Of a stretch of 64,000 nt of DNA, positions 21,335 to 54,555 are shown in pieces; within the stretch, counting starts at the first letter, position 1; the number at the start of each line of letters is the position of its first letter. Source of the stretch: Podarcis vaucheri (taxonomy: Eukaryota); assembly GCA_965113315.1 (NCBI GenBank), contig OZ220363.1; one strand, 5' to 3'. The notes under the pieces were generated by a model. It worked only from the letters and a program-made list of their open reading frames with translations, was not told the DNA's origin and did no database searches. A program made the position numbers and the translations under genes.

Positions 21335-21837
21335 CTAAGATATTGGATTAAAAATAGAGAAGAGTGAGAATTTCATAGCAAAACATAGCAAACATTCATA
21401 CACAAATTAAGTAATTTAATCGTGATCGAAACTTTGCTACATAATGGAAACCAGCTTAGAGTGTTAGCATTAGTTTCCATTGGCTGCCATTATGTTATTC
21501 AATTTTCTCAGTACTTCTTTCTTCAGCAACCTGCGGTTTCCTCAAATTCCTGCTTTTCAGCCAGTTCCTATTTAGTCCTAGTAATACGACTTGTATTATG
21601 GTCAGGTTGATTCAAATGTCTGTCTGTCTGCACACAGACAGCAGGCGCATGAAAAACTGAAAACGCTTGCTGCAAAAACTTCCAGATTGAAACCCTGAAA
21701 AAGTTCTCTGTTCATTAAAAGCCCAATTAATTGTCCCTTTGAAGGCAAGCATGTCCTGCATCCACCAAAAAGGGGGGAGGGGACTGACGCCGGTTGAGAG
21801 GCAATGAACACAGCCTGTAAGCTTATAGATGTAGTTT

Positions 21838-22195
21838 AAAGGTAAAGGTACCCCTGCCCGTACGGGCCAGTCTTGCCAGACTCTAGGGTTGTGCGCCCAT
21901 CTCACTCAAGAGGCCGTGGGCCAGCGCTGTCCGAAGACACTTCCGGGTCACGTGGCCAGCGTGACATCGCTGCTCTGGCGAACCAGAGCCGCACACGGAA
22001 ACGCCGTTTACCTTCCCGCTGGTAAGCGGTCCCTATTTATCTACTTGCACCCGGGGGTGCTTTCGAACTGCTAGGTTGGCAGGCGCTGGGACCGAACGAC
22101 GGGAGCGCACCCCGCCGCAGGGATTCGAACCGCCGACCTTTCGATTGGCAAGCCCTAGGCGCTGAGGCTTTTACCCACAGCGTCACCTGCGTCCC
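21838..22195 (-). mobile_element. Sauria SINE, young CpG-rich copy of a different subfamily
   Basis: Full length, perfect 11-bp TSD agatgtagttt. Confidence 0.9.
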
Positions 22196-31928: not shown

Positions 31929-32033
31929 CTCACTTAAAATGTCCTGAGCGTGTTTGACGTGATTGACAGAGACAGAGTCATTTGGCATCCAGCCAATTCC
32001 ACGCAGCCATTCCAAGTCGGATTTATAAACAGC
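31929..32033 (-). CDS. NEB: Nebulin exon, 105 nt (~exon 110), WLRGIGW motif
   Basis: [35 protein letters not shown]. Confidence 0.95.
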
Positions 32034-32679
32034 CTGCAGAGTCAGGGGAAAACAAGAACAGTTATTTGCAGCACTTTTTTCCCTGCATGGAGTGTTTCAT
32101 ACCAAACTTGATTGCTTTTAACTGAAAGGGAAAAGAGGGCTTGTTTTCCAGTGGCCTACAAAAAGAATGGGATAATAGAAAACTGAAAGGAGGAACTATT
32201 CAGGCACAGAATATACCAGGAACAAATATTTCACTCCCCACTTTGATTATGCTGTGCCTACCACCATCTTGCCTTCTGCAAGGTGGTGCTATATCCTATG
32301 TTTGTTCGACATATTCAAATCAGGTAATACAATCATGAAAAGAATGAGAGCTCAAATCTATACATAATGGAAAGCAATTATGTGCAATTATATGCATGTG
32401 CATAATTGAGGCCTCAATGTCCTGTGTGCTTTCTTAAAGACATCTGATGATTGTCCAAACATTACTGAATTTCTATATTAAAAAATCACATATAGTATGG
32501 ATCTTACCTGTTCACACAAGTATTCTAAATATTTATTATTTTTTATGAAAAGGAATGTAATAATTGTGGAAACAAAATATCAAACACTTATCATTGTAGA
32601 GGCAAATGAGAGACGAAAGAGAGCGATAGACAAGAAGCTATCAAGAAAGAGGATTTTCAACAACAACCAAAGCACTCAC

Positions 32680-32991
32680 GTCACTCTGTAATTCATACGC
32701 TTTCCTGGCTTGGATGACATCATTCTGGTCAGGGAGACACGTCCATTCATGCAGGTAGCGGCGGTAATCAATGTCACTAACAAGCTTCTGACAGTTCTTG
32801 GCCAGCAAGACGGACAGCATGTCAACAGGGCTGTGGATCTTCGTCTTCAATTGATTATATACTTTCTTGTACTCCCGCTCACTTTGCATTTTAGCGACGT
32901 GCATAGCCAGTACCATCTTGGGATCGTCGTTAACGTCTCGGCATCCCACATGGTGTCCAAGTTGCTTACGGTAGCCTTCCTTGTATTTGTA
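32680..32991 (-). CDS. NEB: Nebulin super-repeat exon, 312 nt
   Basis: [34 protein letters not shown]...[11 protein letters not shown]. Confidence 0.95.
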
Positions 32992-33491
32992 CTAATAGGA
33001 TTTGAAAAAATACATATACAATTAGAATCTTCATCTTCGTTATCTCAGCGTGTAGAAAGATTGATAACATTGGCAAGAGTTTTCCATTTAACTCTGTTCC
33101 TAAGATGCTAAACAAAGGCTGCATTCATGCTCACATTTATATCACCTATCCTTTACCTGACCTTTTTTTGACCAACGGCAGAGCTTAATATTTCATCAGG
33201 ATAGTTGACAATTTATTTGGAGCACGTGAATAGCCTTCGCCAAGATGGCACCCTTCACATGTTTCGGACAACAACTTCTATCAGTCATGTTGGATGAGGC
33301 TGATGGATGTTTTAGTTCAAAACATCTGGAGGGCACTAGGTTAGTGAAAGCTGGCCCATAATGTCCTTATATCTTGCCTTGAAAATAGAACTTTAATATA
33401 TTTTCTGTTTCCTGCATTTTAATTTCATTAGATACAAAAGTCTAGAGACAATGGATTACCAAACACTATCAAATTCTATTTGCATACTTAC

Positions 33492-33596
33492 ATCACTGGC
33501 AATTTCTCTTGAGGCTTTGGCTGTTTTGATTGGGACTGCATCTGCTCTCAGGTCAATATATTTCTTCATGTCATCCCAAGATTCCCTATAAAGTTT
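33492..33596 (-). CDS. NEB: Nebulin super-repeat exon, 105 nt
   Basis: [35 protein letters not shown]. Confidence 0.95.
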
Positions 33597-33995
33597 CTAC
33601 AATAAAAAAACCAACAACATTATATTGTCATTATCCTCTTTCAGCACTTACATATATATGAAAGCTCACTGTCAATCAGCTTTTACTTTTTCCTAATCAC
33701 TCCTGTTTTTGCAGGTAAGAGTTACAGATTATCTCCATATAAAACTAGGTAAGGAAAAGTATTTAAACTGCATGTAAGTAATTATGGATAACAAGTGCTA
33801 ACACATCTGTTTTGTGGCATCTCCACAAGCACAATAGATTGCCAGTTTGCACCTATACAGGTACAATAACCCACAGAGAATTTACATGGGTCCTTGCTGC
33901 ATAATGAACTTGTAACATCCAAAGCCCCCTTCAGCTGAGTAACTGAAGAAGGTTGTAGAGTTGTATCATAAGAAGAATGGTAGTGATTTACTTAC

Positions 33996-34100
33996 ATGGC
34001 TCACATTGATAGCATTAGCCCTGGAAAGCACAATTTCTGGTGTGTCTGGCATCAAATGGATCATAACTTTATCTTTATCCCAAGCTTCTCTGTACTTTGC
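33996..34100 (-). CDS. NEB: Nebulin super-repeat exon, 105 nt
   Basis: [35 protein letters not shown]. Confidence 0.95.
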
Positions 34101-34291
34101 CTGAAAAAAACATCGAAATTATCTTGTAATTCCTTTTGCACCAGTGCTCATATTCCTACATAATTTCTCTTTAACTGTAGGAACATGAATAACTTTTCTT
34201 TTAATACAAATAGATGCTTCATGCTACAAACTGATAGGGAGGTTGGTAGCATACTTAAAATAATGTCACATTGCTGAAAGGAGATACATAC

Positions 34292-34495
34292 AAGACTCAG
34301 TTGCTCAGCGTTAGTTTTGGCAAGGACAACTTCAGGCGTGTCAACGATGTTGGTAAATTTCAAACGATCCCGAGGAGTGCGATAAACGTTGTCACTCAGA
34401 ATTTCCTGTGCATATTTCACCTTCTTCACTTCTGGAGACTCATGTGGGATCCATCCAACCCCCCGGAGCCATTCCAGATCTGATTTATACACAGC
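34292..34495 (-). CDS. NEB: Nebulin super-repeat exon, 204 nt, WLRGVGW
   Basis: AVYKSDLEWLRGVGWIPHESPEV...LAKTNAEQLSL. Confidence 0.95.
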
Positions 34496-35148
34496 CTATG
34501 AGAGAAAATTTCAGAGAGGGAGAGCAAGATATTTCAGTTCAATCCAAGGAAATACTCTATGTGGTAAATAGAATGAATGCAACTTCAGAAAGTCAGGACA
34601 AACTTGTCTCAGTTACTTCATCAGGATCTAAGCAGTACTATCTCTCTGGACTAGGCCACAATGTTTCTTTGACCTCCAGTCATATTTCACACCAGCATTT
34701 ATAGCTTCGATCAGCACTATGCTGGCTGGGGAGTTGTGGACCAAAACATCTGGAGAGTTCCAGACTTGTGTAGATTGGGCTAGATAGAGTGGGCAGAAAG
34801 ATCATCCAATCCATACATATGATGGATTCGGTTATGGATTCATTAGCTATTTTTAGATATGCCAAGTCTATCACATCACTCTTGTCTGCATGATGTGTTG
34901 GACATTCTGAATTAAAAATCTTTCAGTTCTTCCTCCCAAGGTACTCATGATGAAATCAAGTGAAGATTAAATTACGTGAAAATGTGACAAGGCCAGTTTT
35001 CATTAACACAACAAAGTAAAAATTAAGAAAAGGAAATCTTCCACAACTATCTATCACGATGTCTCTTTTGCCTTCTGTCCTAGCAGTAATGTGTGTTTGC
35101 AAAGGACAGATATACTTACATCGCTTTGCAAAGGACAGATATACTTAC

Positions 35149-35460
35149 ATCGCTCTGTAGTTCGTAGGCCTTCCTTGCCTGGATCACATCATTCTGGTCG
35201 GGCAGACAAGACCACTGGTGCAGATGTTGACGATAGTCCACCTCACTTACTAAAGACTGGCATTGCTTGGCTGCTTGGACAGACAGCATGTCCACCGGTA
35301 TAGTAATATTGGCTTTGGATTTGTTGTAAGCTTGCTTATACAACCGGTCATTCTGCATCTTCAATACTTTGGCAGCAAATGAAAGTTTAGGGTCCTCCTT
35401 CACTGAAGGGCATCCAATGTAGTGGCCTTTCTGTTTCTCATGAGCTTCTTTGTACTTATA
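35149..35460 (-). CDS. NEB: Nebulin super-repeat exon, 312 nt (donor site duplicated)
   Basis: [34 protein letters not shown]...[11 protein letters not shown]. Confidence 0.94.
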
Positions 35461-36587
35461 CTGAGCAGGAAAGAGAATTGGAAGTTACAGTTATTTGAAC
35501 AATTTCCAGGAGATAAGTTAGAAATTCTTGATGCTTCAGTTTTTAAGGGATTTAGCTATGGAATAGTGAGAGGGTAAATAAAACATAGTAAGGATCCCTA
35601 ATTCTGTCTTTATGAAATATTTACCTGGATTTGTTATTAGGGATGAGACGGAAATGCGGGTCATTTTGCATTTAAAGTCACACTTCCATAATTCACACTT
35701 TATGAATACTGTATACAGACATGTATACGTATTAGGAAAAATTCACATGAAAATCCTAATGAATTTTTATTAGAACTACAAAAAAACCCAAAAAACAAGT
35801 CAATGTGGAAATGTGGAGAATTGATAGTTTTGCCACCCCAATTGTATACATCCTAAGCCTAAGTAAAAAGATCTATTTTTTCAAATAACTGAATAATATA
35901 TATGTGGTTGCAAATTTTACAAAGTCACAATGTCTTTTGAAAAGCACAGCCCACTTTGTGTAATAGTGAAAAGCTACTGATGAAATTTGGCTATCCAGAG
36001 TTCAGAAACGGCAATCATATGCATTTTTACTTGGAACAAAGCCCAGTTGGGCATGGTGGAATTTACCTATCGGCGTAAAAATGCATAGGATGGTGTGCTC
36101 AGGGTGCTAAACTTGATTTGGAAACTATGCAAGATTATTTTATTATTATCTTATTAATTTATATACCACCCTATACCCAGAGGTCTCTGACTTTCCACAA
36201 CTTAAGAGAAAACTTTAAAGTGGTTGTAAAGAAAGGGGAGGGGGGGAGAAACACTTGGGTGTTTTTAACAACAGGAAGCAACAAATTTAATTATTGTAAA
36301 GTCTTTACAGTGCCAAGTATCTCCAAATTTATCACAGTTAGCTCTTTGGCATTTAAAATAATGGACTATATTAAACTTTCTGATTGTTTGAAAGAAGACA
36401 CTTTCATAAATTGTAAAAGAATGGAAAGAATGATGTCATGGACATGCAGTAGAGGAACTTGTATAAGGCTGGATAAATACGGTTTTGAGGCTGAATTATC
36501 AATTGTTCATATACTTTGACATGTGCACTCATCATATGAAAAGATATAGCCATTTGAGAAGTAAATGTTAAATAAAAGAGATTGTAC

Positions 36588-36695
36588 CTCACTGGCAATT
36601 TCTCTGGAGGCTTTGGCATGCTTGACTGAAATAGCATCACCTCTTATGTCGTATCCTTTTGCTTTGGCCTCGTCCCAGGCTCCAGTGTAATGTTT
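36588..36695 (-). CDS. NEB: Nebulin super-repeat exon, 108 nt
   Basis: [36 protein letters not shown]. Confidence 0.95.
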
Positions 36696-37344
36696 CTGCA
36701 ATCAGAATAAAATTCACAGTTTTCAATGTAATAAAATACATGATGAAAACCAACTATAGACATTCCTCAATCAACACTGCGATCCAATGCAAGTTTACTT
36801 AGAAGTAAATCTGTGCTCAATGGGCCTTACTCCGAAGTAAATATGGAATGCATAGGACTGCAGCCAAAAGAGTAAAAATATGAATATACAAACACTGCAT
36901 AAATATAGCTTATACAGATATATTTGTTTGCATGCATGCATACGTCTTATATAACTGACGCCGACAATTTATTTGGGGCCTAGATAAGAAACAGAATGAT
37001 TGTGGGGAAGTACAATTTAGTAATAATAAAGCTTGATAGGCAGAAGATATTGAAGAGAGACTGACATTATCCAAATCACAAAATCATCAAAGCGTGTAAC
37101 AATGAAACACTCTGACAACGTTGGGATTGGGAACAAGTCGGTCTCTTTTTAATATCTTCTGTCCATGAAGTTCAGTTAATTCTCTTTATTACGTCTGAAT
37201 AAAAACTCACAAGTAAGAGCCAAATGCCTTCTTGTTTTTAAGAACAGTTAATGATGGGAAGTTGCATTTGACACGGCTGAATAGGTACAGATGCATCACT
37301 ACACACATTCCACTCATGGGTATATAGTTGGTTAATTCTCTTAC

Positions 37345-37449
37345 ATTGCTGATATTCAGAGCATTAATCTTGGACTGCAGCATCCCAGGGGTGTCTGAAG
37401 GAAGATGGAACTGAGTCTTCTCTTTATCCCAGGCTTCACGATACAGATT
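37345..37449 (-). CDS. NEB: Nebulin super-repeat exon, 105 nt
   Basis: [35 protein letters not shown]. Confidence 0.95.
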
Positions 37450-37593
37450 CTAAGAAGGAAGTGAAGGCATAAATGATTGCACTGCATTACAAAAACCTCT
37501 TATTTTTCAAAGGTATGCAACTATAACTCACGCGTTCCCAATACCAATTTGTCAACATAATGAATACAATAACTGGGTAATTCCCAAGCTTAC

Positions 37594-37797
37594 CTCACTG
37601 ACTTGTTGGGCATTGATCTTAGCCAGGACAACGGGTGGTGGGTCAGCAATACTTGTAAATTTCAGTGCATCTGGACGTTGCTTATACAATCTGTCATTCA
37701 GGATATCTTGGGCATGCTTCACTTTGAGCACTTCCACAGAGCCCTCTGGCATCCAGCCAATACCACGCAGCCATTCTAGGTCTTGTTTGTAGGCGTT
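37594..37797 (-). CDS. NEB: Nebulin super-repeat exon, 204 nt, WLRGIGW
   Basis: [23 protein letters not shown]...[11 protein letters not shown]. Confidence 0.95.
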
Positions 37798-38565
37798 CTG
37801 CAAAGGAAACAATTGGGCTATTAACATTATGGCTGAAAATGTTTCTTCTAATTTATTAAGAAGGCTGTTGCTGTGGCTCGACCCGTCATAATACAGAACT
37901 GCTCAGCTTCCATGGCTGGCCAATCACAAGAAGTGCATACCACTAATGTGGGTATTAATAAACAGCCCTCTTTTTATCCCCTTTCAAGCTGTATATGGCA
38001 GAACAACAACAGTACTGGCCATGCGTAATACAGATTCTAGTAAATAACTCCAGCTCAGGCAATCCAGTCAAGGAAAAATAGGCTGCTTAATGCAGCTTAA
38101 ATTAATTCTTTTCACACCTAAAATTCTCTGGAATAGAAAGTAAAAGACCAATGGAAATGGACACCTCTAGAAGTGTTTAGTTCTATGCAGCTGCCACAAA
38201 TTCAGGTTTTGGTGCCTTACTTCTTCAGATCATGGTAGAGTCAATTAGCCTTGTATGCATGGATACATGTGTTGAATTGAGGTCTCAATGCCCCCTTGTG
38301 TTCTTTCTTAAAGAAGCATGATGATTGTCCAAACAATACCAAATTTATATGTTAAAAAATTCACATGTACTATGATATGTGACATGTGTTCACAGAAGTA
38401 AAACATTTATTACTTTTTAATGAAAAAATATGTAAAAATTGTGGAGACAAAATATAATTGTAGAGCCAACAGTAATAATCCACCAAATGTCATGACAGAG
38501 GAAAGAGAGTGATAGACAAGAAGCCATCATAAAAGAGATATTGCAACAATAACAAAATCACTCAC

Positions 38566-38877
38566 ATCGCTCTGTAATTCATAGGCTTTCCTGGCTTGGA
38601 TGACATCATTCTGGTCAGGCAGGCAGGTCCATTCATGCAAGTAGTGGCGGTAATCAATGTCACTAACAAGCTTCTGACAGTTCTTGGCCAGCAAGACGGA
38701 CAGCATGTCAACAGGACTGTGGATCTTCGTCTTCAATTGATGATATACTTTCTTGTACTCACGGTCACTCTGCATTTTAGCTACGTGCATAGCCAGTACC
38801 ATCTTGGGATCGTCGTTAATGTCTCGGCATCCCACATGGTGTCCAAGCTGCTTACGGTAGCCTTCCTTGTATTTGTA
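38566..38877 (-). CDS. NEB: Nebulin super-repeat exon, 312 nt
   Basis: [25 protein letters not shown]...[11 protein letters not shown]. Confidence 0.95.
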
Positions 38878-39430
38878 CTGATGGGATTTGAAAAAATACA
38901 TATACAATTAGAATCTTCACCAAAGGTATCTCAGATTCAGAGCTTTTTTTCAGCTGCAACTCACTTCTGGCACTTCTGAGGTGGGTGCCATTGTATTGGT
39001 AATGTAAATATTCAGCACATGCATAGATCTTTGAATTTCACACATGCTTCATCTGACATTTTTTTGACCAACAAGATGAAAGCTTTGGTCCTGAGAGATT
39101 AATATTCTACTTCAGAAACCTTCATCAGGATGCTGGACATTTTACTTGGAGCATATTTAAAGCAAACAGCAGCCTTCGCCAAGATGGCACCCTTCACATG
39201 TTTTGGACAACAACGTCCATCAGTCATGCTGGATGAGGCTAATGGATGTTTTAGTTCAAAACATCTGGAGGGCACTATGTTAGTGAAAGCTGGCCCATAA
39301 TGTCTTTATATCTTGCCTTGAAAATAGAACTTTAATATATTTTCTGTTTCCTGCATTTTAATTCCATTAGATACAAAAGTCCAGAGACAATGGATTTCCA
39401 AACACTATAAAATTCTATTTGCATACTTAC

Positions 39431-39535
39431 ATCACTGGCAATTTCTCTTGAGGCTCTGGCTGTTTTGATTGGGACTGCATCTGCTCTCAGGTCAATATTT
39501 TTCTTCATGTCATCCCATGATTCCCTATAAAGTTT
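39431..39535 (-). CDS. NEB: Nebulin super-repeat exon, 105 nt
   Basis: KLYRESWDDMKKNIDLRADAVPIKTARASREIASD. Confidence 0.95.
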
Positions 39536-39817
39536 CTACAATAAAAAACCAACAACATTATATTGTCATTATCCTCTTTCAGCACTTATATATTTATGAA
39601 AGCTCACTGTCCATCAGCTTTTACTTTTTTCTAATCACTCCCGTTTTTTGCAGGTAAGAGATGCCTTAAACATTACAGATTATCTACATATAAAACTATG
39701 TAAGGAAAAGTATTTAAAGTGCATGTAAGTAATTATGGATAACAAGTGCTAACACATCTGTTTTGTGGAATCTCCACAAACACAATAGATTGCCAGTTTG
39801 CATACAAACAGCTAAAT

Positions 39818-39998
39818 AAATTCCTTCCAGTAGCACCTTAGAGACCAACTAAGTTTGTCATTGGTATGAGCTTTTGTGTGCATGCACACGAAAGCTCATA
39901 CCAATGTCAAACTTAGTTGGTCTCTAAGGTGCTACTGGAAGGAATTTTTTAATTTTGTTTCGACTATGGCAGACCAACACAGTTACCTACCTATAACT
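39818..39998. mobile_element. Penelope-like element remnant forming a 130-bp palindrome
   Basis: Arms 39818-39882 and 39883-39947 with 2 mismatches; tail gactatggcagaccaacac; 12-bp direct repeat agctaaataaat at the edges. Confidence 0.75.
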
Positions 39999-40149
39999 AG
40001 CTAAATAAATGCAGGTGCAATACCCCACCTAGAATTTACATGGGTCCTTGCTGCATAATGAACTTATAACATCCAAAGCCCCCTTCATCTGAGTAACTGA
40101 AGAAGGTTGTAGAGTTGCATCGTAAGAAGAATGATAGCGATTTACTTAC

Positions 40150-40254
40150 ATTGCTCACATTGATAGCATTAGCCCTGGAAAGCATGATTTCTGGTGTGTC
40201 TGGCATCACATGGATCGTAGTTTTATCTTTATCCCACGCTTCTCTGTATTTCGC
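40150..40254 (-). CDS. NEB: Nebulin super-repeat exon, 105 nt
   Basis: [35 protein letters not shown]. Confidence 0.95.
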
Positions 40255-40335
40255 CTACAAAAATACAGAATTATCTGTTAATTCCTTCCGCAGAATAATT
40301 AAAATAATGTCACATTGCTGAAAGGAGTTACATAC

Positions 40336-40539
40336 AAGACTCAGTTGCTCAGCGTTGGTTTTGGCAAGGACAACTTCAGGCGTGTCAACGATGTGGGTAA
40401 ATTTCAAACGATCCCGAGGAGTGCGATAAACGTTGTCACTCAGAATTTCCTGCGCATATTTCACCTTCTTCACTTCTGGAGATTCATTGGGGATCCATCC
40501 AACCCCCCGGAGCCATTCCAGATCTGATTTATACACAGC
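40336..40539 (-). CDS. NEB: Nebulin super-repeat exon, 204 nt, WLRGVGW
   Basis: AVYKSDLEWLRGVGWIPNESPEV...LAKTNAEQLSL. Confidence 0.95.
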
Positions 40540-41190
40540 CTGTGAGAGAAAATGTCAGAAAGGAAGAGCAAGATATTTCAGTTCAATTCAAAAGAAATAC
40601 TCTATGTGATAAATACTGTAGAATGAATGGAACTTCAGAAAGTCAGGACAAACTTGTCTCAATTACAGCATCAGGATCTAAGCAGTACTATCTCTCTGGA
40701 CTAGGCCACAATGTTTCTTTGACATCCAGTTGTATTTCACACCAGCATTTATAACTTCAATCAGCACAATGCTGGCTGGGGAGTTGGGGGCCAAAACATC
40801 TGGAGAGTTCCAGTCTTGTGTAGATTGGGCTAGATAGAGTGGGCAGAAAGATCATCCAATCCATACATATGATGACAGCACTCCAATCGGTTATGAATTC
40901 ATTAGCTATTTTTAGATATGCCAAGTCTATCACATCACTCTTGTCTGTGTTGGACATTCTGAATTAACAATATTTCAGTTCTTCCTCCCAAGGTACTCAT
41001 GATGAAATCAAGTGAAAATGTGACAAGGCCAGATTTAATTAATAAAGCAACTACAAATGTTATCCGGGAAACAAAGTAAAAATTAAGAAAAGGAAATCTT
41101 CCACCACTATCTACCATGATGTCTCTTTTGCCTTCTGTCCCTGCAGTGCTGTGCTGTTTGTTTGGCTTTGCAGAGGACAGATATACTTAC

Positions 41191-41502
41191 ATCGCTCTGT
41201 AGTTCGTAGGCTTTCCTTGCCTGGATCACATCATTCTGGTCGGGCAGACAAGACCACTGGTGCAGATGTTGACGATAGTCCACCTCACTTACTAAAGACT
41301 GGCATAGCTTGGCTGCTTGGACAGACAGCATGTCCACTGGTATAGTAATATTGGCTTTGGATTTGTTGTAAGCTTGCTTATACAACCGGTCATTCTGCAT
41401 CTTCAATACTTTGGCAGCAAATGAAAGTTTAGGGTCCTCCTTCACTGAAGGGCATCCAACGTAGTGGCCTTTCTGTTTCTCATGAGCTTCTTTGTACTTG
41501 TA
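41191..41502 (-). CDS. NEB: Nebulin super-repeat exon, 312 nt
   Basis: YKYKEAHEKQKGHYVGCPSVKEDPK...[11 protein letters not shown]. Confidence 0.95.
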
Positions 41503-42377
41503 CTGAGCAGAAAAGAGAATTGGAAGCTTAAGTAATCTGACCAATTCCAAGGAGAAATGTTAATAGAAGTTCTTGGTATTTCAATTTTGAAGGGATTCGA
41601 CTATGGAATATTCAGGGGGTAGATAAAGCATAGTAAGGCTTCCTAATTCTGTCTTTGTATTATAAAATATTTACTTGGACTTGCTATTAAGGGATGAGAG
41701 GGAAATGCAGTTCAGTTTGCAGTTAAAGTCACACTTCCGTAGTTCACCCTTTTTGAAATGAGAACCAAAAGAAACACAACTATGCTTTCAAATTCACATT
41801 CTCCAAATTTTGCAGTGCACATATGCGGCCGAGTAGTGCATGCAGAAATGGATATACTTGTGTAAAGTATGCATATGAAAACATGCATTAGTGAAAATCA
41901 TACAAAATTTCATTAGGGAAAATGGCTTCACAAAAATATGTATATTAGGCAAAATTGCACACAAAAATTATATTAGGAGAATTTCTCGCTAAGATGCTGA
42001 TGAATTTTCATGAAAGCTTTTTTAAAAAATACAGGCCAATGTGGAAATGTAATAATTTACTATAAATGGCTGTAAAATCGGATTTAATATGTCTGCTTGA
42101 AAATATGCCTGCCATTTTGGGATTTGGGGACCAGTTAAACTAAGATTGTGAAAAATAGCTCATCTTGGCTTAACTGGCAATAGCCAATGCTGGAAGAAAA
42201 GATCTCTACAGCTTGAGAACCAATGTAAGCAAATTTCAGGATGTATCTGTGCCAACAGTCTAAAAACTTAAAATGCTAATCTAAAATCAGTTTCCTAATA
42301 TTTACCAAAATATTAGCCACCTGTTTAGCCTTATAGGAAATAACATTACAGAAATAATATACAACAGTTGACAGTAC

Positions 42378-42485
42378 CTCACTGGCAATGTTTCTCGAAG
42401 CCTTGGCATGCTGAATTGCAATGGCATCCACTCTTAAGTCATAACCTTTTTTCTTGGCTTCTTCCCACCCTGCTTCATAATGTTT
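42378..42485 (-). CDS. NEB: Nebulin super-repeat exon, 108 nt
   Basis: [36 protein letters not shown]. Confidence 0.95.
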
Positions 42486-42993
42486 CTGTGAAGAAAATGA
42501 ATAATGCAGCATTCATGTCAGTGTATTTCAATTTTTTTTTAGTAAGGGTCCTGAATATTAACTCATGTGTTTAAGATCTTCAGGTTGTAATTCTAAGTGC
42601 AAGTAATGATAAATTTGAGCAAGCAATATGAAAAAAAAACAAAAAAATGTATTGACTTAATAATTTATGAAAACATTAATTGGCCTCATTATAAAATAGT
42701 AAGTCAGTGTGCCGAATAAAATCATTGTAGTAAAGCAATAACATGTTCCAAGCACAAATGCCACAACAGAGCCAGCACTAAAACATCATTGCTTAGGAAG
42801 GCCATTGTGAGTATGTGTGTTTAAAGCAACCAGAGGAACATCATCACTGTAGATGCCCATTGTATCTCTAGGGGAAGGTCATTCCATGGCACAGGACACA
42901 TTAAATATTACCATGTTGCCTTTTCTTCCATGTCAAGCTCCCACAATAGAATTGTATTGCTATGGTGTATACATATATTCAAACATATAATGT

Positions 42994-43348
42994 TGTAACG
43001 GTAAAGGGACCCCTGACCATTAGGTCCAGTCGTGACCGACTCTGGGGTTGCGGCGCTCATCTCGCTTTACTGGCCAAGGGAGCCGGCGTACAGCTTCCGG
43101 GTCATGTGGCCAGCATGACTAAGCCGCTTCTGGCAAACCAGAGCAGCGCACGGAAACGCCGTTTACCTTCCCGCCAGAGTGGTACCTATTTATCTACTTG
43201 CACTTTGAAGTGCTTTCAAACTGCTAGGTTGGCAGGAGTAGGGACTGAGCAACGGGAGCTCACTCCATCACGGGGATTCGAACCGCCAACCTTCCGATCG
43301 GCAAGTCCTAGGCTCTGTGGTTTAGACCACAGCACCACCCATGTCCCT
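42994..43348 (-). mobile_element. Sauria SINE, full length
   Basis: Aligns to 2187-2540; 12-bp TSD aacatataatgt. Confidence 0.9.
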
Positions 43349-43901
43349 AACATATAATGTATCATACTCAAATAAATGTTGAAAAATGTATGTTTTTATA
43401 CTGAGCCTAAAAATTAATGAGTTAAAACTGAGGAACAAAGGGATGAAATAAAATATAAAATTAAACCCTTTTAGTTACTGCTATCTAACTTCACACTAAG
43501 AAACATTGCAATGTTTTTCTAATATTCAGTATTATGGGAAAGATCAAAGATGATTCCAGTAGATGTGACAAAACTTCCTCTCCTTTGCCCCACCCAATCT
43601 GCTCCAGAAAACCCCCTAGATTGATATAAGCTATCAAAAATATCATATTTTCCATGTTAAAGACCTTCCTGCTCCCCACCTTCCATTTGTTTGCTCAAGT
43701 CTAGGGAATCATGAATTCAGTGGAAGGGCATTACTCATAGCTAATCAGAATTGGTTGCTACATAGAGAACTGAATGGGCATTTCATACATTCATCCTTTG
43801 GTATTCTCAATTCCAATCATAAAACAATTTTAACTGAAAGGCAATTCTCACCCAAACCCCTTATTTAAAGGTCAGAATTGTTTTGCAGATTTAATTCTTA
43901 C

Positions 43902-44006
43902 TTTGCTGACGTTCAGAGCATTCATTTTGGACAGAACCATCTCAGGAGTATCAGCTGGAAGAGTAAACTGTGTCTTTTCTTTATCCCAGAGTTCACGATA
44001 TAATGC
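43902..44006 (-). CDS. NEB: Nebulin super-repeat exon, 105 nt
   Basis: ALYRELWDKEKTQFTLPADTPEMVLSKMNALNVSK. Confidence 0.95.
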
Positions 44007-44909
44007 CTAATGAGGGGAAAAAATATAGTACTTCTTTCTGTTATAATATACAAAGTACATATTGAGAGTATACATACAAAACCCTCCATACAAGCTACTC
44101 GTGCAAGCGGCCTAGTTGGGTGTGCAGCATCGCATATGGATTTTTTATTGGGGATTTATTAAAGAACAGCAGCTACTCCATTGTTAGAAAAATTGCCATG
44201 TTTGGCATTTCTAATCACAGAAGCAATCTTTTGCGAAACCTGCCCCTGCATTTATGTTCCTCAACAATCAGAAAAAAATGCAGAAATATGTTCTAAATGC
44301 AGAGTTGCATCCAATAGTATCTTTGCAGTTGTAAGGAGGTACTTTTGTTTGATAAAGATGGGGCACACAATTTTCAGATATGCCCACCTACCCACTGCTC
44401 CTAGGCGTTGGGCGACCTTCTGGCATGGAAGGATTCAATAGGTAAGGGAGTGTGGCAAAATGAGATGTCACCTTATATGAATGGTATTACCTTTCACAAC
44501 TGGAAAGCTGCTACTGGATACAACCTATACTTTTTGCATTGCATTTATTTGAATAAATAAAGGTGTTTACTATGATAGCAGTCAGAATGGGACGGTTTTC
44601 AAGCATTAACTCAGTTTAAAGGCTCTCTAGCAAAGTGTACAGATCATGAAACAAACTGCAATCTCTGCACCCCAATTGCCCCAATGGAAAGCCTTCTTTG
44701 ACTTCATAGGGGTCTAAATGTGATCTTAAATGAGAGCATAGGCAGCCTCAAGTGATTGTTGAAAATCAAAGCTGCATGGGTTTTGTGCTTATTATTTTCA
44801 TATATCTCACTTGATTCCAGCATGCCGGAGTGAGCATCTAGAAGGACATTCTCCCCACACCCAAAACGCAGATACCCGAGGACCCAAAGGCAAATGCAAA
44901 GTTTCTTAC

Positions 44910-45113
44910 ATTGCTCTGAAGCAGAGCATTGGCCTTTGCCAAGACAATTTCTGGAGAATCAACAATAGCGGTGAATTTCACAGAGTCTGGTCGTTGACGG
45001 TACAGTCTGTCATTCAGGATCTCCTGGGCCTTCTTCACTTTTAAGACTTCCAAAGAACCTTCTGGAATCCAACCAATACCACGCAGCCATTCTAGGTCTT
45101 GCTTGTAGACGTT
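44910..45113 (-). CDS. NEB: Nebulin super-repeat exon, 204 nt, WLRGIGW
   Basis: [23 protein letters not shown]...[11 protein letters not shown]. Confidence 0.95.
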
Positions 45114-46113
45114 CTGCAAAGGAAACAATTGGGCTATTAACAATATGGTTGAAAATGTTTCCTCCAATTTAAGGTCTGCCAATTCGTACTATCATATGTT
45201 TGATCCATCCCATGCTAAATCTTGAAGACTAGGGGTGAAATTAATGAACTTAACCATGGTTATTAATTTCAGTGGGTCTACTTTGAGTAAAACTGAGGTG
45301 AATACTACACTTGCTCTAAACACAACCCTGGTACCAGGCCCAATAACTCTTACACTGCAGTCCTTAGCATGGTTACATAAAAGTCCCTACTGAGCAAAGT
45401 GTGGCTTGTTCCCTAATTATTGTATTTAGGACTGCTAATCCAAATTATTTGTAGCAGCACCAGCACAAATAAGTTTAGGCACTTTTACTTACCATATATT
45501 GGTTTACATTAGTTTTAGTTGTGTGTTTGTTTTTTTAAGTGTTTTTAATGCATTATAACATCGTGACTCCAGATGGCGCTGTAGAGTTTGGCCTTTCTGC
45601 AACGTGATTTCCCATTATGAGGTTTACAACGCGTTTTCCTGAAATGCTTTTATGATGTGTCTCAATCCAGCCCAGGGACATTGAAATTTGATCTTTATTG
45701 ATGCTCACTTTTTACAGCCTGCTTAACCAAGCAGAGTGTTTCTGTGCAGCCCTACAGTTTTGCATAAGAGCTTCGGGACTGAAACGCACCAGACTTTTAT
45801 TTCTTTATGAATAGCCTAAGCATATTTCATCCCACATTCAGAAATTTATGGAAACATAGGAAGCTGTCTTTATATCGGTTCCGACTATTGGTCCATCTAG
45901 CCTAGTCCCGCCTACTCTGATCAGAAGCCAGGGTCTCAGGCAACGAGAGAGATACCTGACCTTTTAAACTTGCTACTGATGTTCTAACTCTTTTCAACTC
46001 AATATGCCATAGACTGAACCTGAGAGACCTTCTGCTTGCAAAGAAGGTGTTTTGCCACTGAGCTGTGATCCCACCTCCATGTGCCCAGGTGCTTTATGTT
46101 TGCTTTTACGTAC

Positions 46114-46425
46114 ATCACTCTGTATGTCATACACTTTCTTAGCCTGAATGACGTCATTCTGGTCAGGCAGGCAGGTCCATTCATGCAGGTAGTGGCGGTA
46201 ATCAATGTCACTAACAAGCTTCTGACAATTCTTAGCCAACAGGACTGATAGCATGTCAACTGGACTATGGATCTTCGTCTTCAGTTGATTAAATACTTTC
46301 TTGTACTCCCGATCGCTCTGCATTTTAGCTACATGCATAGCCAACACCATCTTGGGATCATCTTGAAGGTTTCGGAACCCGATATAGTGCCCTTTCTGCT
46401 TCTCATATGCTTCTTTGTATTTAAA
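46114..46425 (-). CDS. NEB: Nebulin super-repeat exon, 312 nt (acceptor duplicated by TE insertion)
   Basis: [25 protein letters not shown]...[11 protein letters not shown]. Confidence 0.94.
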
Positions 46426-49378: not shown

Positions 49379-49690
49379 ATCACTCTGGAGATCATAGGCC
49401 TTTCTAGCTTGGATGACGTCATTCTGATCTGGAAGGCAGGTCCACTGGTGCAGATAATGACGGTAATCAATATCACTGACCAACTTCTGGCAATTCTTAG
49501 CGTGCAACACTTCCAGCATGTCCACAGGGCTAATATACTTAGTCTTCCATTTCTCAAAGTCCTTCTTATACTCCCTCTCACTCTGCATTTTGGCTACATT
49601 CATAGAATGCACAAGTTTCGGGTCATCTTGCACACTGCGTGCTCCAATATGGTGGCCAAGCTGCTTGCGATAGCCTTCTTTGTATTTGTA
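49379..49690 (-). CDS. NEB: Nebulin super-repeat exon, 312 nt
   Basis: [25 protein letters not shown]...[11 protein letters not shown]. Confidence 0.95.
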
Positions 49691-50927
49691 CTGAAATAGA
49701 TATACATGTGTAAACCATCTACCCATAAGATTATTCATCAGATACCTGCATTGGAAAATCCCACATTCTGAGAGGATTGTGACAGTATTTTTCTCATCTA
49801 GATAGCATCTTTTGTTCCTATGCTTGTCCCTTCATCTTCCTATTTCATCGTACATATTTTCTAATAATCTTTAAAGATTTTGTTCCTTTGGCAAGGTAAG
49901 CTTTTCTTCTTCTTCAATCCTTTATTATTCATGGATAGGAATGAAAAAGCTCTTTAGGTAGTTCCGATGTCTTGGGTAATGCTTAAGCACCTCCCGCCAT
50001 CTTTCCAGTTTCAAAACTACTTTGCTATGTGGCGATCAAGTGGGGGCTTTCATGAACCACGAGTCCATGGTCCCTTGGAGATGCAGAGCTTGTTCACAGT
50101 TCCTTGAATCTCAGCTCTAAATTAATCCCAATATATTTTCCCCCTGGATTTCATCTCTTTTTTTTTTCTTTTCTTTTTTAATCTATTATGCAGCTGCCTT
50201 CAAATATTTTTCCTTTCTTTTCCAGTAAGTTTTAAAGAAACATAGTAAACAAAGCAAACAAACAAGGAAATACATCTGGCTAAGTCCATTTCACCACACT
50301 GTGAAAATGTCCGGTGGGTTGATAACAGTTCCAAAATGGGGCAAAAAGCCCAAGTTTCTGCTTGCATTATTCTTTTCTTCCCATGAATGTTTACAGCAAG
50401 TGATCTTATTAATATTCCACACAGTAAACATTTCCTGCTAATAACAGCTGAGCTGTAGTTAATACATAATTAACTTCGACTTTGAGTTTTCTTTTAACTT
50501 GCCCTTTCACTAACCATGAAATAATTGTTTTAGGGTTTCATTGTAGCTTGTATCACATTAAAACCCTGTGAAACATTACTGTCTTCCTATATTGTGCCTA
50601 AGACTCTCCTCGTGCCACTCTGCTTTCTATTTACTACATCTCCTCAGGCACCTTTTTCAATACTCTGTTCTTAATGCTACTAAAGAACCCTGTTCTTTTG
50701 TCCCCATAATTCACATAATAATTTAGTCTCTTAGCAAATGAAACCAAAATCGTGGAAGGAAATGTAGCTTCTCTCTAATACTGCCTTTCATGGATGCCTA
50801 AAACATCCACCACAGTCACACATACTGTAGAATTGAGACCATAGTTTCAATTCTTTTTTTTATTTAGAGCAAGAAATGTTTTCCCCTTAAAAAAAAATGC
50901 TATACATAGAACATATTGGGTACACAC

Positions 50928-53485: not shown

Positions 53486-53797
53486 ATCACTCTGGAGATC
53501 ATAGGCCTTTCTAGCCTGGATGACGTCATTCTGATCTGGAAGGCAGGTCCACTGGTGCAGATAATGACGGTAATCGATATCACTGACCAACTTCTGGCAA
53601 TTCTTAGCGTGCAACACTTCCAGCATGTCCACAGGGCTAATATACTTAGTCTTCCATTTCTCAAAGTCCTTCTTATACTCCCTCTCACTCTGCATTTTGG
53701 CTACATTCATAGAATGCACAAGTTTCGGGTCATCTTGCACACTGCGTGCTCCAATATGGTGGCCAAGCTGCTTGCGATAGCCTTCTTTGTATTTGTA
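53486..53797 (-). CDS. NEB: Nebulin super-repeat exon, 312 nt
   Basis: Protein identical to exon 49379-49690. Confidence 0.95.
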
Positions 53798-54196
53798 CTG
53801 AAATAGATATACACGTGTAAACCGTCTACCCATAAGATTATTCATCAGATAGCTGCATTGGAAAATCCCACATTCTGAGAGGATTGTGACAGTATTTTCC
53901 CCATTTAGATAGCATCTTTCTTCCTTATCTTTTTGCCACTTCATTTTCCTAATTCCTCATACAGATTCTCTAATAATCTTTAAAGATTTGTTTCCTTTAG
54001 GAAGGTATTTTTTATTATTATTCATGAATCTATTAAAAATGGACCAGTCATTCTGTTTTGTGTTGTTTTCAGAAGGGGCAGCTTTAAAGAAAAACCACAG
54101 AAAAAAAGAAAACAAATGCGAGCATTAGCCAAATCTAAGTGTAAGCTTGAATGACAAGCCTGGCTTGGATGACAGGCCAAAGTTCCATGCAATTCC

Positions 54197-54555
54197 TGGC
54201 ACTGTGGTCTAAACCACTTAGTCTAGAGCTTGCCAATCAGAAGGTTGACAATTCAAATCCCCGCGACGGGGTGAGCTCCCGTTGCTCTGTCCCAGCTCCT
54301 GCCAACCTAGCAGTTCGAAAGCATGTCAAAGTGCAAGTAGATAAATAGGTACCGCTCCAGCGGGAAGGCAAACAGCGTTTCCGTGCGCTGCTCTGGTTTT
54401 TCCAGAAGTGGCTTAGTCATGCCAGCCATATGACTCGGAAAAACTGTCTGCGGACAAACATCAGCTGCCTCGATCAGTAAAGCGAGATGAGCACCACAAC
54501 CCCAGAGTCATTTGCGACTGGACTTAACGGTCAGCAGTCCTTTACCTTTACCTTT
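54197..54555 (+). mobile_element. Sauria SINE, older copy
   Basis: Reverse complement of 2187-2540 type; ends cctttacctttacctttt. Confidence 0.85.

Follow-up and report, generated by a model that had tools for sequence, protein, structure and literature searches.

In a survey of 53 species, nebulin (NEB) was found to change only by whole numbers of super-repeats, with thin-filament length increasing by 38.3 nm per unit, and independent duplications in the central region were reported to have brought the total to between 21 and 31 (PMC7754682); its Table S1 lists three non-avian reptiles and no lizard. The human triplicate (TRI) region is given in PMC9109913 as exons 82-89, 90-97 and 98-105. 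With the super-repeats of this section called X, Y and Z, TRI is described as a tandem X+Y repeat of 8 exons and ~10 kilobases (kb), with highly similar copies and a polymorphic copy number, and chimpanzee and gibbon likewise repeat X+Y and have a single Z (PMC7754682, Table S2). By counting, Z would correspond to exons 106-109. In the camel (Camelus ferus), super-repeats (SR) 17-24 read X(YZ)x4, with near-identical proteins; the text of the survey describes this gain as a copy of the TRI region, whereas its Table S2 shows Y+Z instead (PMC7754682). Here we analyse 64,000 nucleotides (nt) of contig OZ220363.1 from the lizard Podarcis vaucheri (assembly GCA_965113315.1; hereafter the window), in which nebulin has probably undergone a lineage-specific gain of exactly one super-repeat, placed two units from its source and partly overwritten later.

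On its minus strand, the window carries ~80 nebulin exons, which are bounded by AG/GT, join in phase 0 and are colinear, exon by exon, with gecko, bird and mammal nebulin. The Pfam family Nebulin (PF00880), whose modules carry an SDxxYK-type motif, scored at or above its gathering threshold in all 7 exons scanned. Identity to the gecko protein is mostly 78-97%, and lower to bird and mammal proteins. Matches to NRAP reach 36-43% only, so the gene is NEB, as an earlier model-made reading from the sequence alone (the sequence-only reading) had held, rather than NRAP or nebulette. A central super-repeat is built of four exons in phase 0 (312 nt for A, 204 nt for B, 105 nt for C and either 108 or 105 nt for D), which together make seven modules. 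We lettered the units a to k in order of transcription; those considered here are f (from A at 46425-46114 to D at 42485-42378), g (41502-39431), h (38877-36588) and i (35460-33492), followed by exon jA. Units f, g, h and i encode 243, 242, 243 and 242 amino acids, with one WLRG(I/V)GW sequence, a WLKGIGW-like motif, per unit. The one-codon-short 105-nt D exons of g and i, already picked out in the sequence-only reading, both have AG/GT ends. This 35-codon exon is ancestral, because the super-repeat that contains it is 242 amino acids long in turtles, birds, mammals and frog.

The sequence-only reading had proposed a tandem unit of two super-repeats comprising eight exon pairs. We observed that only five exons are duplicated, together with the introns that it had seen to align. 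Self-BLAST returned three colinear high-scoring segment pairs (32392-33869/38263-39819 at 83%, 33855-34135/40009-40287 at 90% and 34248-35706/40292-41757 at 88%), and the four introns within the tract and both flanks aligned with local scores of 73-831, against shuffled maxima of 24-31. A ~130-nt element common to the two copies (39170-39310/33232-33371) is weakly self-complementary, being 72% identical to its own reverse complement. The sharing of this element had been claimed before and holds; the label of miniature inverted-repeat transposable element (MITE) we assume from its palindromy. Some differences are specific to one copy, including a difference of ~110 nt in the B-C intron between g and i, and a palindrome (39815-39950; predicted fold in pre-mRNA -113 kcal/mol, z=-19.5) opposite a gap in the source copy; no second copy of this palindrome was found in the window. 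Past the downstream junction, similarity fell to that of shuffled sequence. Just past the upstream end there is a weak, AT-rich match of 85 nt (41971-42050/35730-35814, 69%). With a score of 69, where the best of 300 shuffles reached 72, this match is marginal; the tract may extend into it, or an old repeat may lie at the junction.

The three remaining exon pairs are more diverged, as had been noted: fB/hB match at 153/204, fC/hC at 79/105 and fD/hD at 81/108 nt (each 75%), and their two internal introns score 19 and 22 against shuffled maxima of 23 and 30. A gecko nebulin fragment (P0076) has the unit order e, f, h, i, j, without g. Gecko X and Y differ at 41 sites, 23 of which sort f with X and h with Y, and none the reverse. 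In a joined tree of exons B, C and D, f grouped with gecko X (support 100/99) and h with gecko Y (100/99), turtle units adjoining both pairs (90/92 for f and 81/84 for h), and the single-exon trees placed f and h one to one with separate gecko exons in 3/3. The joined, A-exon and single-exon trees had 55, 45 and 37 rows, respectively, and were built without super-repeats from broken gene models (length outside 236-244 amino acids), more upstream units and two redundant mammals. Forcing f and h together was 77 log-likelihood units worse (approximately unbiased (AU) test, p=4e-6). The comparison identifies the f and h exon pairs as ancient paralogues, not as products of this duplication. With gecko, then, the orthology is one to one for all three pairs, which the sequence-only reading had itself named as the result that would overturn it. 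Mammals give another picture: their X and Y make up a clade of their own (94/85), and a one-to-one pairing of these two units with f and h is unsupported, so that human exons 82-88 correspond to f and h by position only. By eye, viper SR17-23 and alligator SR12-16 have distinct X and Y (viper SR17/18, alligator SR13/14) and a single Z (PMC7754682, Table S2).

On this orthology, the ancestral order reads X(BCD)-XA-Y(BCD)-YA-Z(BCD)-ZA, and X-Y-Z has here become X-Z'-Y-Z. The 3.5-kb tract YA-Z(BCD)-ZA occupies the place of the single XA exon, two super-repeats upstream of its source. Relative to the gecko order, the net gain is four exons and 726 coding nt, one super-repeat, in frame and with a whole-number change. 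If all exons are spliced in, the section would, by analogy with published work, add ~38.5 nm to the thin-filament ruler.

Two ages are recorded within the tract. Counted in gap-free alignment columns, intron mismatches amounted to 78/432 (~18%) in the flanks and 71/1241 (~6%) in the core (Fisher p=5e-13), in agreement with the mosaic homogenisation suggested earlier. Estimates for the older stratum agree with one another (0.20 in the upstream flank, 0.21 in the downstream flank and 0.21 for the synonymous divergence, dS, between hA and jA), compared with ~0.06 in the core, and the upstream change from old to young coincides with the gA acceptor. It seems very likely that the flanks date the duplication and that the ~2.3-kb core reflects later conversion. 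For g and i, dS is 0.078, as against 0.86 for f and h. The ratio of non-synonymous to synonymous divergence (dN/dS) between g and i is 0.28 (12/162 synonymous and 12/564 non-synonymous sites, p=0.002), with 11 amino acid differences over four exons. This ratio and the canonical splice sites are consistent with use of both copies.

Conversion has also acted outside the tract. The near-identical patch previously noticed upstream of the B acceptors of f and h continues into the exon, where identity is 44/48 at the exon start and 102/147 for exon nt 58-204, and fB and hB share Q at residue 5, a position occupied by S in both gecko exons. Sharply bounded tracts with shared derived changes are what ectopic gene conversion leaves, and we interpret the patch as a short conversion tract between ancient paralogues. 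In exon A of f, dN to hA is 0.315 over codons 1-24 and 0.032 over codons 25-104 (dS 0.69), a profile showing that an older exchange homogenised the part beyond codon 24 with hA/jA.

XA and ZA, the A exons on either side of Y+Z, are identical at 103/104 residues in gecko and 100/104 here, although between gecko and this animal they match at 85-89/104. XA and ZA are less alike elsewhere: three mammals have 62-64/104, two turtles 71-76/104. A distinct Z-A exon is kept by turtles, birds, crocodilians and mammals. By eye, XA and ZA of the viper show one difference (PMC7754682, Table S2). Together, gecko, viper and this animal point to a squamate-wide homogenisation of the XA/ZA pair. We tentatively suggest, with less than even confidence, that the squamate A exons at the equivalents of human exons 85 and 109 are locked in concerted evolution, which has overwritten the distinct Z-A exon and seeds rearrangements in which super-repeats change order (X-Z-Y-Z here, a comparable mosaic in turtles) instead of only being stacked. 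If this is correct, selection would hold the module count at seven while leaving the order of the central units free, and counting or positional alignment of super-repeats would hide repeated gains, losses and overwrites.

As to how the tract arose, we give roughly even odds to a route in which a tandem Y+Z duplication was followed by loss of four exons. Unequal crossing-over near the near-identical A-exon pair of squamates would have produced the duplication, a tandem of the kind seen in camel, and an intronic deletion would then have removed XA, YB, YC and YD from the first copy. Such a deletion would be tolerated because any four consecutive exons amount to seven modules, so that frame and period are kept. 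A two-unit tandem duplication, absent from the present sequence, may thus have existed as a historical intermediate. Subsequently, the core would have been made alike again by gene conversion over ~2.3 kb. Another conversion tract, of ~110 nt, would have homogenised the exon-B acceptors of X and Y; we consider both conversions highly probable.

The same end product also fits a single step of ectopic copying, in which a break near XA led to template switching or long-tract synthesis off YA-Z-ZA and one exon became five. One event would replace two and no five-unit intermediate would be needed, and the tract is in one piece, its two ends share the older age and no exon remnants were detected. 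Homology at the downstream end was at hand through the XA/ZA pair, and the 85-nt match lies just past the upstream end. That match is at the level of shuffled sequence, however; moreover, tandem Y+Z duplications are documented in camel (PMC7754682, Table S2), and a similar offset mosaic in turtles also reads as a duplication of two units with deletion of one. We consider single-step copying possible but rather unlikely. Lower still in probability is the insertion of four exons (YA, ZB, ZC and ZD) upstream of the original XA, the likeness of hA and jA then being due to independent, long-running squamate conversion. XA already resembles ZA in gecko, and by eye in viper, and ~100 nt of unalignable sequence divide the four-exon part from hA, but the agreement of hA/jA dS and the downstream intron with the upstream flank favours one event. 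The model of the sequence-only reading, an eight-exon tandem duplication that arose in this lineage and is still intact, three of its pairs having escaped homogenisation and diverged, would explain why eight pairs line up in register at an offset of ~6 kb with a converted acceptor patch between fB and hB; it is nevertheless highly improbable, and is already refuted by the gecko orthology unless the gecko protein is wrong, the AU test, exon trees and diagnostic sites all opposing it and the f/h dS and unalignable introns far exceeding the divergence of the oldest part of the tract. A haplotype duplication or other assembly artefact, which the sequence-only reading had also raised, has a negligible probability: the copies differ at 6% and 18% of intron positions, at 11 amino acids over four exons and in indels that include the palindromic insertion, three single-copy exons lie between them in a window containing no N, and these copy differences and interleaved exons exclude an allelic duplication.

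Several observations weigh against the gain of a single Z-derived unit as we describe it. The single squamate outgroup used in computation is a partial gecko gene model with the source label UNVERIFIED_CONTAM, and the viper and alligator comparisons were made by eye only. The joined protein tree lends no support to g and i as sisters (i groups with gecko at 62/46), so that their pairing rests on DNA; forcing them together was not rejected (AU p=0.38). Within the tract, ~100 nt (38935-39034) align at shuffle level, and the tract could consist of two abutting pieces. The breakpoints are putative and are placed where the self-alignment ends. Finally, no remnants of the presumably deleted exons were found in five introns (best tblastn E=0.09), a result that speaks neither for nor against deletion. 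Protein searches returned no nebulin from another lacertid-type lizard, the gecko model being the sole squamate among the matches listed (in one case 1006 were scored and the best 120 listed, almost all of them from mammals), and a HMMER representative search gave no stretch above 74% identity, its two longest matches being 43-71% identical to window exons.

Like the human and ape TRI, the expansion lies in the central hotspot of the same gene, consists of whole super-repeats and includes the YA exon (89/97/105-type, by our own numbering). It differs in comprising one super-repeat, in being non-adjacent, in including Z (106-109-type) and in its 6-18% intron divergence, which makes ongoing unequal exchange less likely. 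There is no head-to-tail unit of eight exons and two super-repeats, and the duplicated exons are YA, ZB, ZC, ZD and ZA instead of X+Y (exons 82-89). The feature is therefore a member of the integer super-repeat expansions, not of the TRI-type tandem eight-exon duplications. The sequence-only reading was right that this expansion is independent of the human one at the same hotspot, and that the tract includes the Z-type super-repeat, exon-106-109-like in our count, that is single-copy in human; the different register that it proposed is real but not unique, being found in the published camel table and probably in horse.

In both camel and this locus Z recurs at two-unit spacing, but the first Y of camel is absent here (PMC7754682, Table S2). 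In the same table Z has two-unit spacing in horse (SR18/SR20), which on that basis probably shares the shifted register. The start motif of the Z-A exon occurs in 40 places in Table S2, 38 of them in the 34 species examined: once in 32 species, four times in camel and twice in horse. The dromedary has a single Z in this table. Viper (Protobothrops, SR18-21; PMC7754682, Table S2) and birds show independent expansions at the same spot, as one-unit tandem Y arrays with a single Z. Turtles (Pelodiscus, Gopherus and Chrysemys) have an extra super-repeat resembling the unit two positions away, a comparable mosaic; their extra unit, known from protein evidence only, is Y-like and stands before X, whereas the one described here is Z-derived. 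In the turtle proteins P0156 (residues 3853-4581) and P0259 (residues 3857-4585), the B exon of the extra Y-like unit starts like that of X, which makes this an apparent second case of a unit gained out of order.

The locus shows that a unit gained at the central hotspot can be placed in shuffled order. It also shows the human TRI register to be one among several: apes repeat X+Y, camel repeats Y+Z, birds and viper repeat Y by itself, and Z stands out of order here. What is new is the out-of-order gain of a single unit with a two-stage history, together with the squamate A-exon homogenisation; no matching title on squamate nebulin repeats was found in literature searches of titles and abstract starts, made in a collection with few subscription journals. 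The effect is small and the accepted model is kept, but the DNA of the locus preserves its history in two junctions, two ages and conversion tracts, which is of use for repeat-protein evolution and for cross-species numbering. Coordinates are collected in Table 1.

Table 1. Features of the nebulin section between units f and j, in positions of the window
Feature	Position	Strand	Remarks
Exon fA, 312 nt, three modules	46114..46425	-	First 24 codons of own identity, rest homogenised with hA/jA
Acceptor-side conversion patch, partner 37798-37855	45114..45171	-	54/58; ~50 nt more into exon B
Exon fB, 204 nt, ancestral super-repeat X	44910..45113	-	62/68 to gecko X, 49/68 to gecko Y; tree 99/99
Exon fC, 105 nt, super-repeat X	43902..44006	-	34/35 to gecko X, 26/35 to gecko Y
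Exon fD, 108 nt, super-repeat X	42378..42485	-	31/36 to gecko X, 24/36 to gecko Y
Derived copy of five-exon tract (gA, gB, gC, gD, hA and introns)	38263..41757	-	Self-alignment
Upstream flank of tract, older stratum	41516..41757	-	38/213 mismatches, d=0.20
Tract core, younger re-homogenised stratum	39173..41515	-	71/1241 intron mismatches
Exon gA, 312 nt, copy of iA	41191..41502	-	307/312 nt; PF00880
Exon gB, 204 nt, copy of iB	40336..40539	-	198/204 nt
Exon gC, 105 nt, copy of iC	40150..40254	-	95/105 nt
Near-perfect palindrome, C-D intron of derived copy only	39815..39950	.	68-nt arms, 96% complementary
Exon gD, 105 nt, one codon short, copy of iD	39431..39535	-	102/105 nt
Old palindromic MITE-like element, partner 33232-33371	39170..39310	.	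95% between copies
Exon hA, 312 nt, partner jA	38566..38877	-	296/312 nt; dS=0.209, fits older stratum
Downstream flank of tract, older stratum	38263..38565	-	40/219 mismatches, d=0.21
Exon hB, 204 nt, ancestral super-repeat Y	37594..37797	-	61/68 to gecko Y, 49/68 to gecko X; tree 100/99
Exon hC, 105 nt, super-repeat Y	37345..37449	-	30/35 to gecko Y, 25/35 to gecko X
Exon hD, 108 nt, super-repeat Y	36588..36695	-	32/36 to gecko Y, 24/36 to gecko X
Source tract, ancestral position	32392..35706	-	Followed by jB1, as in gecko, birds and mammals
Source tract exons iA, iB, iC, iD, jA	35149-35460, 34292-34495, 33996-34100, 33492-33596, 32680-32991	-	
Exon jB1, first single-copy exon downstream of tract	31929..32033	-	94% to gecko

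Some minor features of the tract and its surroundings were also observed. A 29-nt tandem duplication (35096-35154) spans the iA donor and places a second GTAAGT 29 nt downstream, which would shift the frame if used. Within both gA (41293) and iA (35251), codon 70 is followed in frame by GTAAGT, which may be a cryptic donor. An interspersed repeat of ~355 nt, a short interspersed nuclear element (SINE)-like sequence that resembles lacertid ones, is present in four copies at 76-90% identity (2186-2541, 21837-22195, 42995-43348 and 54197-54553), none of them within the duplicated tract.

Further upstream in the gene, a second duplication involves super-repeats b and c (59408-58160 and 56579-54986), whose B, C and D exons encode the same protein sequences (dS 0.18, dN 0) and whose introns are alignable with 6-23% mismatches. 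Gecko has here a unit type (P0076, residue 2137), seen by eye also as viper SR13, that is missing from this animal; unit c may have taken its place, leaving the number of units unchanged. Exons dA and eA (53486-54024 and 49379-49916) are identical at 310/312 nt, and ~227 nt of upstream intron align with 12% mismatch, but the B, C and D exons of d and e are only 62-75% identical; dA/eA is best interpreted as a separate conversion tract.

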